This document shows positions 1,875 to 62,305 of a stretch of DNA of 64,000 nucleotides, one piece after another. Where the stretch lies: the NCBI GenBank assembly GCA_000165345.1, contig CM000436.1, positions 608,001-672,000 of the forward strand, in the 5' to 3' direction. The position numbers and the translations under genes were made by a program. The notes under the pieces are model-generated. The model did not search any database. It was not told the DNA's origin and saw nothing but the letters and a program-made list of their open reading frames with translations. Position 1 is the stretch's first letter. Each line of letters opens with the position of its first letter.

Positions 1875-1892
1875 TTGGCGCCTTGGCGCCAA
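1875..1892. promoter_or_regulatory. Tandem E2F-like TTGGCGCC-TTGGCGCCAA element in a divergent promoter
   Basis: Exact doublet between divergently oriented genes (552-1415 minus, 2167-2958 plus). TGGCGCCA is the E2F-like upstream motif reported for Cryptosporidium. Confidence 0.55.
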
Positions 1893-2166
1893 CAAAATAT
1901 GATTATTTGTAGTTGCATGCATTGAAAAAATTTGCCACGTAATGTAAATGCAAGTAGAGTTTGCATGCAAACAACGGTGTGAATAAAAAAAAAAATCAAT
2001 TAGTTTTTTTTTAAAAAGTGGGAATAATTTAATATATAGAGATTCAGAAGAAAAAATAAATTGTGGATTATTGTTTTTTCTTCTTTTTAAAGAAAACCAA
2101 GATATAAATGATTGTTTTTAAAGAGGAATTTTTTTAAGAGCAAAATAGAATAAAAGGAAAGTCAAA

Positions 2167-2958
2167 ATGGTTGAAGTTGAAGAATTTGGAATTAAGTGTA
2201 GCAATATGGAATGTAACCTAATTCAGTTTTTACCATTTGAGTGTTTCAAATGTAGAAAAAAATTCTGTATAGAACATGTAAATTCTGGAAAGCATATGTG
2301 CGAAAGTAAAGGCAATGATTTAGAACTAGATAATGGTTTTAAGGGAGGATTTGAGGAAAGAGAAAAAGCTTCGGTAAATTGCTCAATGAACGGTTGTTCA
2401 AATGTAGGGATAATATGTAGAAAGTGCAATAAAATGTTATGCTCGGAGCACATTTATGAATCTGAGCACGAATGTATGGGAAAGAATAGAGTTATAATTA
2501 GTAAAACCGCACTTGATTTGAAAAGAAGGTATTCAGGAGGAGAAATGTTAAGAGGATCAAAGCTTCCTGATGAAAATAAATCAAGTAAAATGTTGAGGAA
2601 AATAATGATAAAATCAAAAAGTATTGGAGATTCAAGTATTCCAGCTAGGAATAGAATTGCAGTAGCTTTATATGTAAGTAGTGGTGTGGAATGCTTAAAA
2701 TTTGTAAATAAGGACTTACCAATATGTATTTGGTTAAATGGGGAGAAGACAGTTGGATGGAACTTGGACTACATTTCAGAGAAATTAAGAGTATTACATG
2801 GGAATAATAAGGCAAAGTTTTTAGGATTGGTTTTATTTAAAAATAAGGATATTCAAGGGAATGAAATTCCAGAAAAGAAGATTCTAGAGATGAGCGTAGA
2901 ATTGAGAAAATGCGTTTCAGATGGGGAGTCTTTGCTACTTGATTATGGGCTTGCTTAA
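2167..2958 (+). CDS. Protein with two AN1-type zinc fingers (ZFAND1/Cuz1-like)
   Basis: Two copies of C-x4-C-x9-12-C-x2-C-x4-C-x2-H-x5-H-x-C (CSNMEC...CFKC...CIEH...HMC and CSMNGC...CRKC...CSEH...HEC) followed by a ~150-aa C-terminal domain. Confidence 0.65.
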   Translation: MVEVEEFGIKCSNMECNLIQFLPFECFKCRKKFCIEHVNSGKHMCESKGNDLELDNGFKGGFEEREKASVNCSMNGCSNVGIICRKCNKMLCSEHIYESEHECMGKNRVIISKTALDLKRRYSGGEMLRGSKLPDENKSSKMLRKIMIKSKSIGDSSIPARNRIAVALYVSSGVECLKFVNKDLPICIWLNGEKTVGWNLDYISEKLRVLHGNNKAKFLGLVLFKNKDIQGNEIPEKKILEMSVELRKCVSDGESLLLDYGLA

Positions 2959-3201
2959 TTGTGGGTAATTAACACAATATTTGTATTTGAATCATATTAT
3001 CTAACCAACAAATTTCTATTCCAATAAAAATTGAGCTATCACTTCTTCTAAATATAACTCAACTTTTGAATGATAATTCAAAGTAAAGTTTATCCAAGTT
3101 CAAAATTTGAGATTATATTATTTTTATTGCTCCCCCCTCATTCACAAACTCATTTGCCCCTTTTACAAGAAATTAACATGCAAATAATGAAAGTAAAGAC
3201 A

Positions 3202-3217
3202 TGGCGCTATGGCGCCA
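3202..3217. promoter_or_regulatory. Tandem TGGCGCTA-TGGCGCCA E2F-like doublet ~100 bp upstream of the SNF2 ATPase gene
   Basis: Seen directly in the sequence. Confidence 0.5.
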
Positions 3218-60600: not shown

Positions 60601-61452
60601 CGGGAATATAAAATGTTGTAGAGGAACAGGTCTGTAATCTGTGTACACAACGTGACAAGGTTGATGTTTTGTCCTACAAATCCACTCCGCAAACTCTAAA
60701 TGATTTGGAATGGTAGCGGACAAGAACACTAGTCTTACAGTATCTGGCAAAAGAATGATAGACTCTTCCCAAACAACGCCTCTTTCTTTATCTCTCATAT
60801 AATGGATTTCATCAAAAATGACCCAGGCTATTTCTCTTACTAATTCGCTTCCTCTATAAAGCATAGATCTAAGAATTTCAGTAGTCATTACCATAATTGA
60901 CCCAAGTGGATTTACTGTGACATCTCCAGTAAGAAGTCCCACATTATTATCACCAAACGTAGTTCTTAAATCTCTGTACTTTTGATTACTCAAGGCCTTA
61001 ATAGGAGATGTATATACAACCCTCTGATTACTCTTTAGAGCCATTGCAATAGCATACTCTGCTACGCAAGTTTTCCCTGCTGAAGTATGCGCTGAAATTA
61101 ATACACTTTCTCCTATTTCCAAACAACCTATAGATACAGCCTGAAAAGTATCTAGTTTAAATGAGTATTCCTTTGCAGGAATTTTTTTTCCATTCTCATC
61201 ATACTGAACTCTGAGCTTAGAATCTGTTGGAGCAACATAACCGCATGGCCTAATACATTCATGTACGCAATTCGTCCCTGACTCATATACAATATGTTCA
61301 ACTTTCATGCTCTCATCGAATCTCGTGTGATTAGCAACGATATTCTCATTTTCATCAACCAATTCCTCTAAATTATCATCATTTTTGCTGTCAACTTTAG
61401 CTTTCTTTTGAGTCTGAGGTGAATCATCAAATGATCTTTCTTCCCTTTCCAT
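57610..61452 (-). CDS. SKI2: Ski2-like DExH-box RNA helicase (SKI2/SKIV2L type, exosome cofactor)
   Basis: AHTSAGKTCVAEYAI (motif I), DEIHYM (motif II), SAT, the helicase-C motifs (MSGRAGRRGLDDRG), a long insertion/arch region and a C-terminal DSHCT-like domain. The 1280-aa length favours Ski2 over Mtr4. Confidence 0.85.
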   Translation of the reverse strand: MEREERSFDDSPQTQKKAKVDSKNDDNLEELVDENENIVANHTRFDESMKVEHIVYESGTNCVHECIRPCGYVAPTDSKLRVQYDENGKKIPAKEYSFKLDTFQAVSIGCLEIGESVLISAHTSAGKTCVAEYAIAMALKSNQRVVYTSPIKALSNQKYRDLRTTFGDNNVGLLTGDVTVNPLGSIMVMTTEILRSMLYRGSELVREIAWVIFDEIHYMRDKERGVVWEESIILLPDTVRLVFLSATIPNHLEFAEWICRTKHQPCHVVYTDYRPVPLQHFIFPAGGNGVYLVMDENKVFKQDNYMKALSALKIAAESNSSQKEQKKHAGKAQLRVDLESIVNMCQERSYLPIIVFSFSKKDCELNALSLKNIDLSTEEEKESIDFIFNSALATLAEEDRNIPQVVGMLPLLRRGIGIHHGGLLPVVKEIVELLFGESFIKVLFSTETFSMGINMPAKTVIFTSLRKFDGKEYRIVNSGEFIQMSGRAGRRGLDDRGITITMIDELADPWAIKSMLTGQPLRIDSQFYIGYNMLLNLLRLEGADPEYMINRSFSQFLKRKKTVSLHEEINRIQSILDNYKVSEPIIKVIDSNQEQNHSESPTKKSRTSLNKSNSQGNQFVVMSRKVEGVDDIYGSFKESLILPEFSNFSELLTAYAYFLHFSGYKVICKDENLFDSKDFYSKNPRPSNLLEVELPSEKEFLRDKASIHSKISNFVDLCKESCGFETQVNQADIDIIMNEKATGYHIESEKALIRIGDTLFNHFTEMIELNKYIKKFIINSRIIHRFLNPGRLVYIRLPYLEQEEANSLNLQNLESQNENETLELGLKDPKYIFDMNVLNGFSQNQYLDLGWGVLLSNPNPRNKKVDTGFLIEPNKNKNLENQSEYCNNQQEGETQNSNSNSTGIEDSEKFYVRVLLNKKRFPKLVYDKIVKELEKNVEDSINENTDYCVFNCTVSSIQEISTVRLNIPQNRSNITNKNTPGLMSLEISLNKVLEHLGKDKIPLIDYYGDEIINIGNASSDSQICNKLDKFKELQKKIQRESILINKCPFLALLLLYISSHRRHLKERVDEIQKDLREHEYDTIMQKELLGMRKVLKNLDYTDENSIVQLKGRIACEISTSDELLITELLFNNVFFQELKIEYIVAILSSLLYDEKCPDIKLEDSTLAVGYDNILDVAKMIVKISLESGLNIDSTQYMSKFRPQIMPIILKWSKGESFASILENTSFYEGSVIRCLRRLEELLRQVASATKSIGNDDLEKKLKEGIALIRRGIVFTPSLYL

Positions 61453-61650
61453 TTTCGCTCCTCCTTAATCGGTAATTATTATTAACCTCAATAAACAGAG
61501 ACTCAATAATTAGCCTAGCCTAGGGTAAATAATAATCTAGGCAATAGTGGTTGATATTCAAACGAATAATAATTATTGGATAAATTTTTGTCAATTTTTT
61601 TTTAATTTTTGATTTAAAAATGAAATTGTCAAAAATTACAAGTAGTGCAC

Positions 61651-61676
61651 CGCCAAAATTGCTACCCCGCCAAATA
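61651..61676. promoter_or_regulatory. Two CGCCAAA half-sites (CGCCAAAATTGCTACCCCGCCAAAT) ~200 bp upstream of the Ski2-like gene, followed by a GCATGCAAACATGCATG motif at 61716-61734
   Basis: Seen directly in the sequence. Confidence 0.4.
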
Positions 61677-62305
61677 CTTGTGTTCTACCGGTACATTATA
61701 GTGATTGTCAAGTATTGCATGCAAACATGCATGAGAAAATGATAATTGATCATTTAACTAAAATTATAGATGAGAGATAATTGCTTCCTTTTTATTTTAT
61801 AATTTATTTAACAAGGGATTTTTTTTAAAAATTTTTATCAAGTGTAAATTTAACACGAAAGAGTCAGTAATGTTAAATGAATTAACTGATTTTTAAAGAA
61901 AAATTCAATTAAACTAATCGAATTAAGTCATTTCAATATTATGGGAAAGTTGTAATTTAATAACTTTCCAAATATTGGATTTTATCAAATATATTATTGG
62001 CACATAAATTAATACAACTATCCAAACCCATTAAAAATGGTTCAAATAGCAGTCATTTACCAGAAAAAAATAAATATTTAAATCAAATAATATATAAAAT
62101 AACTTCAAATCCATTAAAAAAAATGATAATTTTTTGGCGGGCATATATTTGTGTGAATTAAAGTCTTGTCCATTATGTCTTGCAGGGTCATTTTTGCCCA
62201 CTAAATTGAATGCATGGTACTAAATAGCCATTGGGATTGATGAATGTATAAAGAAAAGAATATTCTGGTTAACTTTTGATAAGATAATAAATTTGTTTAA
62301 GATAG

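Follow-up and report, generated by a model that had tools for sequence, protein, structure and literature searches.

The 64,000-bp stretch of DNA analysed here (the window) is from Cryptosporidium parvum Iowa II, on a chromosome of ~1.34 Mb; its ORFs for CDC45, Brahma, transhydrogenase and formin match C. parvum Iowa II proteins at 100% identity. A map built from public gene calls divides it into 48,977 bp of genic and 15,023 bp of intergenic DNA, with annotations disagreeing on some gene models (8974-9810, 10101-10903 and 21621-22748). GC-rich words with the core GGCG[CG][CG], searched on both strands, recur upstream of the genes, among them CDC45 and a CKS gene, whose first-pass identities are borne out by PF02724 and PF01111, respectively. 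The sites are as follows, with strand where one is assigned:

1875-1892: doublet TTGGCGCCTTGGCGCCAA, paired palindromic cores with a spacing of 8 bp, lying between the divergent genes hyp287 (- strand) and zf-AN1 (+ strand)
3202-3217: doublet TGGCGCTATGGCGCCA, 107 bp 5' of the SNF2/Brahma ATG
3235-3240, - strand: CCCGCC core, third site upstream of SNF2/Brahma
8528-8535: GGCGCCAA, 5' of a 221-aa gene
9967-9976: CTTGGCGCCT, 126 bp 5' of a 119-aa gene
10964-10969, - strand: CGCGCC core (GGGCGCGCGCG), 5' of hyp729
12620-12631: GGCGCCGGCGCC, within the hyp729 coding sequence
13727-13742, - strand: ACCCGCCAAAATCGCT, 5' of the transhydrogenase gene; second core, GCCGCC, at 13804-13809
19169-19783: four-core cluster in a 1214-bp region 5' of a cold-shock-domain gene (19169 GGCGGG, 19360 GGCGGGAA, 19554 TGGCGCCAAAA, 19778 TTTGGCGCGC)
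21266-21271, + strand: GGCGGG, divergent region between cyclophilin-RRM and Romo1
22675-22680, - strand: TTTCCCGCCAAG, within an uncertain Romo1 model (annotations differ), 444 bp 5' of the PfkB ATG
22929-22944, + strand: GCGCAAAAGGCGGCAA, 182 bp 5' of the PfkB kinase ATG
24423-24433: TTGGCGCCAAT, 304 bp 5' of CDC45
27052-27064, - strand: TTAATTCCCGCCT, 395 bp 5' of a diacylglycerol kinase gene
29516-29559: GGCGGG (29516) and TTTGGCGCCAAT (29548-29559), 5' of V-ATPase G
33331-33340, + strand: TTTTGGCGCG, divergent region, 248 bp 5' of Sey1
34327-34338, + strand: weak variant GGTTTTGGCGGT, matching TGGCGS only, ~160 bp 5' of TFIIF-beta
35529-35538: TGGCGCCATG, 285 bp 5' of a SAM-domain kinase
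38290-38409: CCCGCC (38290) and GGCGGG (38404), within the coding sequence of a Vps15-like kinase
40913-40925, + strand: TTGGGCGGGAAAA, divergent region between the Vps15-like kinase and formin
44791-44802, + strand: TTTGGCGGGAAA, 55 bp 5' of a SAP/LOTUS gene
46377-46386, + strand: TTTGGCGCGC, 234 bp 5' of hyp594
49830-49839, + strand: TTGGCGGGAA, 495 bp 5' of hyp247 (a - strand gene)
52712-52728, - strand: CCGCCTATTTTCCCGCC, core pair 12 bp apart, 5' of hyp579
54801-54810, - strand: TTCCCGCCCA, 330 bp 5' of hyp549
56673-56684, + strand: TTTGGCGGGAAA, 109 bp 5' of hyp516
57447-57459: CTGGCGCCAAAAT, 88 bp 5' of the CKS gene (56873-57360, - strand)
61651-61676, - strand: CGCCAAAATTGCTACCCCGCCAAATA, core pair 16 bp apart, 213 bp 5' of an Mtr4-like helicase
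62133-62142, + strand: TTTGGCGGGC, 165 bp 5' of a 998-aa gene starting at 62306

The first-pass annotation of this DNA had listed E2F-like words, and the sequence it described is present at all 25 of its coordinates. Several of its entries are weak variants (TTGGCGCTTAC at 8476-8486, the only entry for the 221-aa gene; GCGCAAAA at 22929; TTTTGGCGGT at 34327), and strict sites at 3235, 8528, 10964, 13804, 19169, 19360, 21266, 22675 and 29516 had been overlooked.

Over the whole window, GGCGCC is found 12 times against 0.70 expected, GGCGGGAA 10 times against 0.24, and GGCGSSAA 24 times against 0.81. The excess lies in intergenic DNA, where there are 31 cores against ~1.8 expected from shuffles (17-fold), in keeping with the earlier description of the words as far over-represented; an unbiased ranking of intergenic k-mers puts the E2F family (TTGGCGCC, 12 vs 0.2; GGCGGGAA, 8 vs 0.16) and TGCATGCA at the top. 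Genic DNA is at chance level (five cores vs ~3.5 expected from shuffles) rather than depleted, contrary to the claim that the motif is essentially absent from coding sequence with a single exception: cores were found at 12620-12631, 38290-38295 and 38404-38409, as well as at 22675-22680 in the uncertain gene model. The 12620-12631 word is probably a chance or coding occurrence outside the promoter-site system, and the two in the Vps15-like kinase, absent from the earlier list, are likewise at chance level.

The claim that the words mark 5' regions is confirmed: at least one core is present in each of the 23 intergenic regions containing a gene 5' end, and all 28 genes whose 5' region falls in the window have an upstream intergenic site, including those for a V-ATPase subunit, a transhydrogenase, kinases, a formin and hypothetical proteins. 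None of the five short convergent (3'/3') regions has a core, but this is weak evidence, because these regions total just 1,167 bp (~2.6 cores expected at 5'-region density, P ~0.07).

A position matrix of the 31 intergenic sites has T in 19-23 of 31 at positions -3 to -1 and A in 18-22 of 31 at the first two 3' positions, giving the consensus TTTGGCGSSAA, i.e., TTTGGCG(G/C)(G/C)AA. As a sequence, this is the canonical E2F/DP site, with a GC core (SGCGCS or GGCGGG), a 5' T-run and a 3' A-run, as the first-pass annotation had proposed. Its division into palindromic and asymmetric forms is correct in that both occur, but they represent the extremes of one GGCGSS series (GGCGGG, 15 sites; GGCGCC, 10; GGCGCG, 4; GGCGGC, 2). 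Asymmetric sites read sense to the downstream gene in five cases and antisense in eight; the sites are thus strand-independent, as expected of a site acting at the DNA level. In tandem regions they are 55-1032 bp from the ATG (median 309), so that the distance of ~50-550 bp given earlier fits 21 of 24 sites (55-553 bp) but not the full range, and their relative position within the region is 0.14-0.86 (median ~0.48, mid-region). The tandem doublets also noted earlier exist, and are conserved in other species.

Interspecies comparison shows purifying selection on the cores. Perfectly kept in C. ubiquitum are 12 of 17 cores (71%), vs 12.2% of other intergenic 6-mers, and in C. felis 4 of 17 (24%), vs 1.4%; in alignments the cores are islands of identity, and, gene by gene, the same variant (GGCGCC or CCCGCC) is maintained. 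The block at 1875-1892, TGGCGCCT(T/A)GGCGCCAA, is unchanged in both species, and the SNF2/Brahma doublet is perfect in C. ubiquitum (ATGGCGCCATGGCGCC). The region orthologous to the cold-shock-domain cluster has five strict cores in C. ubiquitum and four in C. felis. The Romo1 (21266) and Sey1 sites are kept in C. ubiquitum, as are that of the SAM-domain kinase, at the same 285 bp, and both V-ATPase G sites, the palindromic one being found in C. felis too. Upstream of the diacylglycerol kinase gene, CCCGCC is the sole 6-mer invariant in four species. Conservation is deepest, among the sites examined, in the CDC45 promoter, where GCGCCAA persists in C. ubiquitum, C. felis and C. ryanae amid otherwise diverged sequence; the CKS site is not retained in C. 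ryanae or C. andersoni.

The words of the window are the published C. parvum “E2F” upstream motif, already known together with its interpretation. An E2F-like upstream motif was reportedly described in C. parvum by Bankier in 2003. The same motif has been reported by Mullapudi (2007; PMC1779779), Oberstaller (2013/2014; PMC3734150, PMC4117751) and Xiao (2025; bioRxiv 10.1101/2025.01.17.633476); it is over-represented upstream of genes genome-wide, and has been matched to E2F/DP, whose genes are present (PMC3734150, PMC4117751). It is written 5'-TGGCGCCA-3', [C/G]GCGC[G/C] or GGCGGG, and organism, words, upstream location, E2F/DP interpretation and ubiquity are all shared; nothing essential differs, and the published words are those over-represented in intergenic DNA here (31 vs 1.8; top-ranked k-mers). 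The window brings no new principle: raw sequence alone confirms a published Cryptosporidium peculiarity, an E2F-type site apparently at almost every promoter, of relevance to how an important cause of diarrhoea controls its genes. Additions to the papers cited are modest: conservation followed site by site into C. ubiquitum and C. felis, a ~30 bp pairing with TGCATG(CA), and strict cores that become sparser in C. ryanae and gastric species.

We consider it likely that the TTTGGCG(G/C)(G/C)AA words are E2F-like cis-elements of C. parvum promoters, putative E2F/DP sites serving as a general promoter element. Each would be a double-stranded DNA site for winged-helix heterodimers of the parasite's E2F and DP proteins, with predicted target words including TTTGGCGCCAAA and TTTGGCGGGAAA; in E2F/DP dimers generally, each subunit recognises one half of the GC core, with T/A flanks raising affinity. 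The sites would occupy the promoter part of short intergenic regions, mostly 50-550 bp before the ATG, two divergent genes often sharing one site or doublet, typically within ~30 bp of TGCATG(CA), the motif that ApiAP2 factors bind. C. parvum has two E2F genes (cgd1_1560, cgd6_1430) and two DP genes (cgd7_3650, cgd8_1850) (bioRxiv 10.1101/2025.01.17.633476, PMC12246861); Pfam scans of 20 ORFs and precomputed Pfam families on public gene calls found none in the window. The E2F motif ranks as the most prominent one in sporozoite ATAC-seq peaks, which places it in open chromatin (bioRxiv 10.1101/2025.01.17.633476), and only a very small number of presumed components of gene regulation have been experimentally confirmed in Cryptosporidium, according to a 2025 review (PMC12246861). 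Because essentially every gene has a site, the words would serve this compact genome as a general promoter or activator element, not as an S-phase-restricted switch; an element found at every promoter cannot alone account for stage-specific expression.

One alternative is a classical E2F regulon, in which the sites specifically mark cell-cycle or S-phase genes, CDC45 and CKS among them, and drive periodic expression. Both of these genes have the palindromic TGGCGCCAA form, the CDC45 site, traceable as far as C. ryanae, is the most deeply conserved of those examined, and E2F-like motifs were earlier found over-represented 5' of subsets of DNA-replication and glycolysis genes, according to Oberstaller 2013 (PMC3734150); Mullapudi 2007 itself gives a G-rich motif 5' of replication genes and a GGCG-core motif 5' of glycolysis genes (PMC1779779). 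Such a regulon is nevertheless unlikely: a site precedes 28 of 28 genes, metabolic, trafficking and hypothetical ones included, and the palindromic form is also found 5' of the zf-AN1, SNF2, V-ATPase G and SAM-domain kinase genes. The CKS site is not retained in C. ryanae or C. andersoni, the motif lies 5' of 161 of 200 co-expression clusters (PMC4117751), and E2F-motif clusters peak at any time point (PMC3734150). The cell-cycle gene association seen by the first-pass annotation is not supported as stated, since with the motif at every gene in the window there is no contrast for CDC45 or CKS, and no restriction to, or enrichment at, cell-cycle and DNA-replication genes was found.

It is also improbable that a different protein binds the words, whether a Sp1-like C2H2 zinc finger on GC boxes or an uncharacterised protein, their likeness to E2F sites being coincidental. 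C. parvum has several C2H2 zinc-finger proteins of uncharacterised specificity (PMC12246861), and a few sites are GGGCGGG (40916, 54803). A Sp1-type GC box has a GGGGCGGGG core and G-rich flanks, however, and the flanks here are T-rich 5' and A-rich 3' (pre-core base T in 20 of 31 sites, G in 5 of 31); palindromes of the GGCGCC and GGCGCG type (ten of the sites are GGCGCC) suit a dimeric E2F/DP site, not a Sp1 GC box. Against any different binder, Cryptosporidium is the only apicomplexan in which retention of E2F/DP has been reported (PMC3734150, PMC12246861).

Much harder to sustain is a role at gene boundaries, with the sites terminating or insulating the upstream gene at its 3' end. The mid-region placement in tandem regions means that position alone does not assign a site to the downstream gene, but all divergent (5'/5') regions, devoid of 3' ends, have sites and convergent ones have none; the sites also co-cluster with the TGCATG promoter motif, and the motif lies inside ATAC-seq peaks at transcript 5' ends (bioRxiv 10.1101/2025.01.17.633476). 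A functionless artefact of chance or composition, favoured by nothing but the small sample size, is refuted by the 17-fold excess over shuffles, the 23 of 23 positive gene-5'-end regions and the strong interspecies conservation.

Canonical animal and plant E2F/DP sites are TTTSSCGC, with TTTGGCGGG and TTTCCCGCC as Arabidopsis examples (for the structural basis of the site, see Zheng et al., 1999, as cited in PMC3734150). Shared with these are the GC core and T/A flanks, palindromic and asymmetric variants, orientation independence, promoter-proximal placement and occasional overlapping double sites. The animal and plant sites mark out a restricted regulon for the cell cycle and DNA synthesis, controlled via Rb-family pocket proteins; in C. 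parvum, by contrast, they precede essentially every gene, and no Rb orthologue has been reported (PMC3734150).

Strict cores are not equally dense across the genus: intergenic DNA has ~1.8/kb in C. parvum, ~0.5/kb in C. ryanae, where the looser TGGCGC is dominant, and ~0.2/kb in the gastric species C. serpentis and C. andersoni, whose enriched words are AGCGC and TAGCGC. The near-universal use of strict GGCGSS cores may have arisen as a derived trait within the intestinal parvum/ubiquitum/felis lineage, and such a distribution would be in line with a narrower E2F regulon in the ancestor, later expanded to a general promoter element.

The other dominant intergenic word of the window, the ApiAP2 motif TGCATGCA (AP2_1; 36 vs 4.4 expected), is unlike the E2F-like core in sequence but adjoins it; its binders are AP2-domain proteins, according to protein-binding microarrays (PMC3734150, PMC4117751). 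The core and TGCATG(CA) may be one compact two-part promoter module; this reading and the lineage-specific spread of strict cores, taken jointly, are offered as a tentative suggestion, and for each species they draw on just 11-15 kb of intergenic sequence. The two motifs are a median of ~30 bp apart, and the distance of the pair to the ATG differs from gene to gene; TGCATG is more often on the ATG-distal side (13 vs 4), a weak bias (P = 0.049).

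Strict E2F-like cores, GGCG[CG][CG] on either strand, are concentrated between the genes. The 15,023 bp of intergenic DNA (26% G+C, in a window of ~31% G+C) contain 31 of them and the 48,977 bp of genic DNA contain five; shuffling inside each compartment gives expectations of 1.8 and 3.5, respectively, so that intergenic DNA is enriched ~17-fold and genes are at chance. This bears out the over-representation of GC-rich words proposed in the first-pass annotation. Across the whole window, GGCGCC is found 12 times, GGCGGGAA 10 times and GGCGSSAA 24 times, against 0.70, 0.24 and 0.81 expected from dinucleotide-preserving shuffles. 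In an unbiased ranking of intergenic k-mers against an order-2 Markov model, E2F-like words and TGCATG(CA) are the top two families: TTGGCGCC (12 vs 0.2 expected), TGGCGCCA (7 vs 0.08), GGCGGGAA (8 vs 0.16) and TGCATG(CA) (36 vs 4.4). All 25 coordinates of the first-pass annotation contain the sequences as stated, but its list of instances includes some weak variants and misses about nine strict sites. It had also described the motif as nearly absent from coding sequence, with one exception; the genic count is at chance level, and there is more than one exception:

12620-12631, core in coding sequence
38290, core in coding sequence
38404, core in coding sequence
22675, core in an uncertain gene model

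Placement was judged against a map of 29 genes, taken from public gene calls obtained via exact-protein look-ups and covering small intron-containing genes invisible to an ORF scan. Long ORFs, mostly without introns, fill much of the window, and they encode eukaryotic proteins (SNF2/Brahma, CDC45, a fused pyridine-nucleotide transhydrogenase, formin, Sey1, V-ATPase G, kinases). Four ORFs (CDC45, Brahma, transhydrogenase and formin) match Cryptosporidium parvum Iowa II proteins at 100% identity, and the look-ups put the window at ~598.7-662.7 kb of the 1.34 Mb C. parvum chromosome CM109968.1. The CDC45 label given previously is correct, as is that of CKS, whose public gene call carries PF01111:

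56873-57360, minus strand, CKS, an intron-containing small gene

Gene models at 8974-10903 and 21621-22748 vary among public annotations: a Romo1-like gene is 201 aa with introns, 63 aa or absent, depending on which of three assemblies is compared, and intron-containing genes of 221 and 119 aa correspond to ORFs of 148 and 51 aa in other annotations. Whether the site at 22675 is genic depends on these divergent models. Rfam and tRNA scans found no RNA genes in the window's long intergenic regions.

Each of the 18 tandem and 5 divergent intergenic regions, the 23 that hold the 5' end of a gene, has at least one core, and the five convergent regions have none; the latter total 1,167 bp, in which ~2.6 would be expected at 5'-region density (P ~0.07), so their lack of cores is no more than suggestive. 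Alignment of the 31 intergenic sites gives the consensus TTTGGCG(G/C)(G/C)AA: the three bases on the core's 5' side are T in 19-23 sites each, and the first two on its 3' side are A in 18-22. The palindromic and asymmetric forms distinguished in the first-pass annotation are both present, but as ends of one series: GGCGGG (15), GGCGCC (10), GGCGCG (4) and GGCGGC (2). Sites in tandem regions sit mid-way along the intergenic region, 55-1032 bp (median 309) from the downstream ATG. Asymmetric sites are sense to the gene in five cases and antisense in eight, and this use of both orientations argues for a double-stranded DNA site rather than an RNA signal. Divergent regions have 1.4 sites each vs 1.33 for tandem regions, near-equal counts that, in a small sample, fit shared bidirectional promoters; in divergent regions a single site or doublet probably serves both neighbours. 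Looser core pairs are spaced by 12, 16 or 23 bp, and the tandem doublets noticed earlier are indeed present:

1875-1892, doublet in the bidirectional region 1416-2166, core spacing exactly 8 bp
3202-3217, doublet, core spacing exactly 8 bp

One region, between a cold-shock-domain gene and a cyclophilin-RRM gene (18746-19959), is unusually long at 1214 bp, and its four E2F-like cores are spread over distances of 423-1032 bp from the ATG; its orthologous regions have five strict cores in C. ubiquitum and four in C. felis. Rfam and tRNA searches of it gave 0 hits each, and its layout could point to a complex promoter, to a transcript missing from the annotation or to a long 5' UTR.

The window's sites match the E2F motif published for C. 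parvum, 5'-TGGCGCCA-3' with cores [C/G]GCGC[G/C] and GGCGGG, which was itself matched to E2F/DP sites, TTTGGCGGG and TTTCCCGCC among them (PMC3734150). For this species neither the pattern nor its reading as E2F sites is new; both are established. E2F is the most over-represented upstream motif genome-wide (Oberstaller 2013, PMC3734150) and the most prominent motif of sporozoite ATAC-seq peaks, occurring also between genes of polycistronic transcripts (Xiao 2025, bioRxiv 10.1101/2025.01.17.633476). An earlier sighting on chromosome 6 is credited to Bankier 2003, as cited in PMC3734150 and PMC12246861. C. parvum has E2F/DP genes (Templeton 2004, as cited in PMC3734150) and is reported to lack Rb (PMC3734150). 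Its E2F genes are cgd1_1560 and cgd6_1430 and its DP genes cgd7_3650 and cgd8_1850, none of which lies in the window. Mullapudi 2007 (PMC1779779), in which the term “E2F” appears nowhere, described a motif with a GGCG core before glycolysis genes and a G-rich one before replication genes. According to a 2025 review, very few putative regulatory components have been experimentally confirmed (PMC12246861).

On the sequence evidence, the pattern is real, strongly non-random and, judged by its conservation, functional. The most probable reading is that the E2F/DP heterodimer binds these sites, which would serve as general promoter elements situated in the promoter part of each intergenic region. 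This reading draws on their sequence, enrichment, confinement to 5' regions, independence of orientation and conservation, all observed here, together with the presence of E2F/DP genes (PMC3734150) and of the motif in open chromatin (bioRxiv 10.1101/2025.01.17.633476), both taken from the literature; E2F/DP heterodimers would bind these putative sites and activate transcription. A classical cell-cycle regulon, in line with the cell-cycle gene association suggested at first, is unlikely, the sites being ubiquitous: all 28 genes with a 5' region in the window have one upstream, so the window cannot show any such association. The palindromic form is not confined to CDC45 and CKS, being present upstream of zf-AN1, SNF2, V-ATPase G and a kinase too. 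Clusters that carry the motif may peak at any time point (PMC3734150) and the motif occurs in 161 of 200 clusters (Oberstaller 2014, PMC4117751); these published data argue for a general over an S-phase-specific role, and cell-cycle specificity is not supported. Binding by a different protein, such as a C2H2 zinc finger, is just as improbable; an Sp1-type GC box is rejected, since both the flanking T and A bases and the palindromic cores speak against it. It is very doubtful that these are 3'-end, terminator or boundary elements, a reading we reject: sites are in all divergent regions and no convergent ones, and the ATAC peaks are found at the 5' ends of transcripts. That the pattern is an artefact of chance or of base composition is refuted by the statistics and the conservation.

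Conservation was followed through syntenic loci for the CDC45 region (C. ubiquitum, C. felis, C. ryanae, C. serpentis), the Mtr4/CKS region (C. ryanae, C. andersoni) and the zf-AN1/SNF2 region (C. ubiquitum, C. felis), with identical gene order at all of them. The sites reappear in the corresponding regions of C. ubiquitum and C. felis, mostly as the same variant: GGCGCC precedes CDC45 and V-ATPase G, and CCCGCC precedes diacylglycerol kinase, in both species as in C. parvum, and GGCGCC precedes the SAM-domain kinase in C. parvum and C. ubiquitum. In pairwise alignments the cores are identity islands, 12 of 17 C. parvum cores being perfectly kept in C. ubiquitum (vs 12.2% of other intergenic 6-mer windows) and 4 of 17 in C. 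felis (vs 1.4%), with P values that are approximate because the windows overlap. As read from these alignments, the sites are under purifying selection. The deepest-conserved is that of CDC45 (24423-24433), which extends to C. ryanae, GCGCCAA being kept in four species; before the diacylglycerol kinase gene, CCCGCC alone among 6-mers is invariant across four species. The doublet TGGCGCCT(T/A)GGCGCCAA is invariant over its full length across three species, and for the second doublet C. ubiquitum has a perfect ATGGCGCCATGGCGCC. Conservation of the CKS site does not extend to C. ryanae or C. andersoni.

In C. ubiquitum, the orthologue of 56873-61452 is a single 1813-aa product (P0012) with both the Mtr4-like helicase and CKS Pfam domains, probably an annotation merge over a short intergenic region with an E2F-like site. 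An ACGT-core word, TACGTCAT, at ~27027-27035 (12294-12302 of the C. parvum locus L001), precedes the diacylglycerol kinase CCCGCC site by about 20 bp; it is a possible bZIP/CRE-like site, conserved among C. parvum, C. ubiquitum and C. felis, with partial retention in C. ryanae.

The other leading word family, enriched on a par with the E2F-like words, is the published ApiAP2 “AP2_1” motif:

1925-1975, 24390-24400 and 27005-27090, examples of TGCATG/TGCATGCA, which is intergenic and window-wide

TGCATG(CA) clusters adjoin E2F-like cores, with a median separation of 32 bp vs 121 bp for random placement in the same region, a value matched by none of 5000 randomisations. The effect survives swapping of partners between regions (29.5 vs 139.5 bp, P = 0.0004), which argues for a compact module rather than a preference of both motifs for the same distance from the ATG. 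Xiao 2025 (bioRxiv 10.1101/2025.01.17.633476) reported that AP2 motifs were not found in the ATAC peaks of sporozoites. The relative order of TGCATG and the E2F-like core shows a weak bias (13 against 4, P = 0.049), not reproduced in a small C. ubiquitum sample, and a fixed order is not claimed. Two further words are mildly enriched in the window's intergenic DNA, CCGGTA/TACCGG (11 vs 1.7 expected) and CGGTAA/TTACCG (11 vs 3.2); CGGTA is enriched in C. ryanae too.

Strict-core density drops with phylogenetic distance, in a small sample of ~11-12 kb of intergenic DNA per clade; a literature search found no paper comparing the motif between gastric and intestinal species.

Strict cores in orthologous regions of four species
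C. parvum: 20 in 10.9 kb intergenic (~1.8 per kb)
C. ryanae: 6 in 12.3 kb intergenic (~0.5 per kb)
C. serpentis and C. andersoni: 2 in 11.1 kb intergenic (~0.2 per kb)

Among the non-repeat words of C. ryanae, the looser TGGCGC is still the most enriched (10 vs 1.0 expected), and the gastric species are instead enriched in AGCGC (10 vs 2.6) and TAGCGC (6 vs 1.0), each of the three with 0 occurrences in genes.
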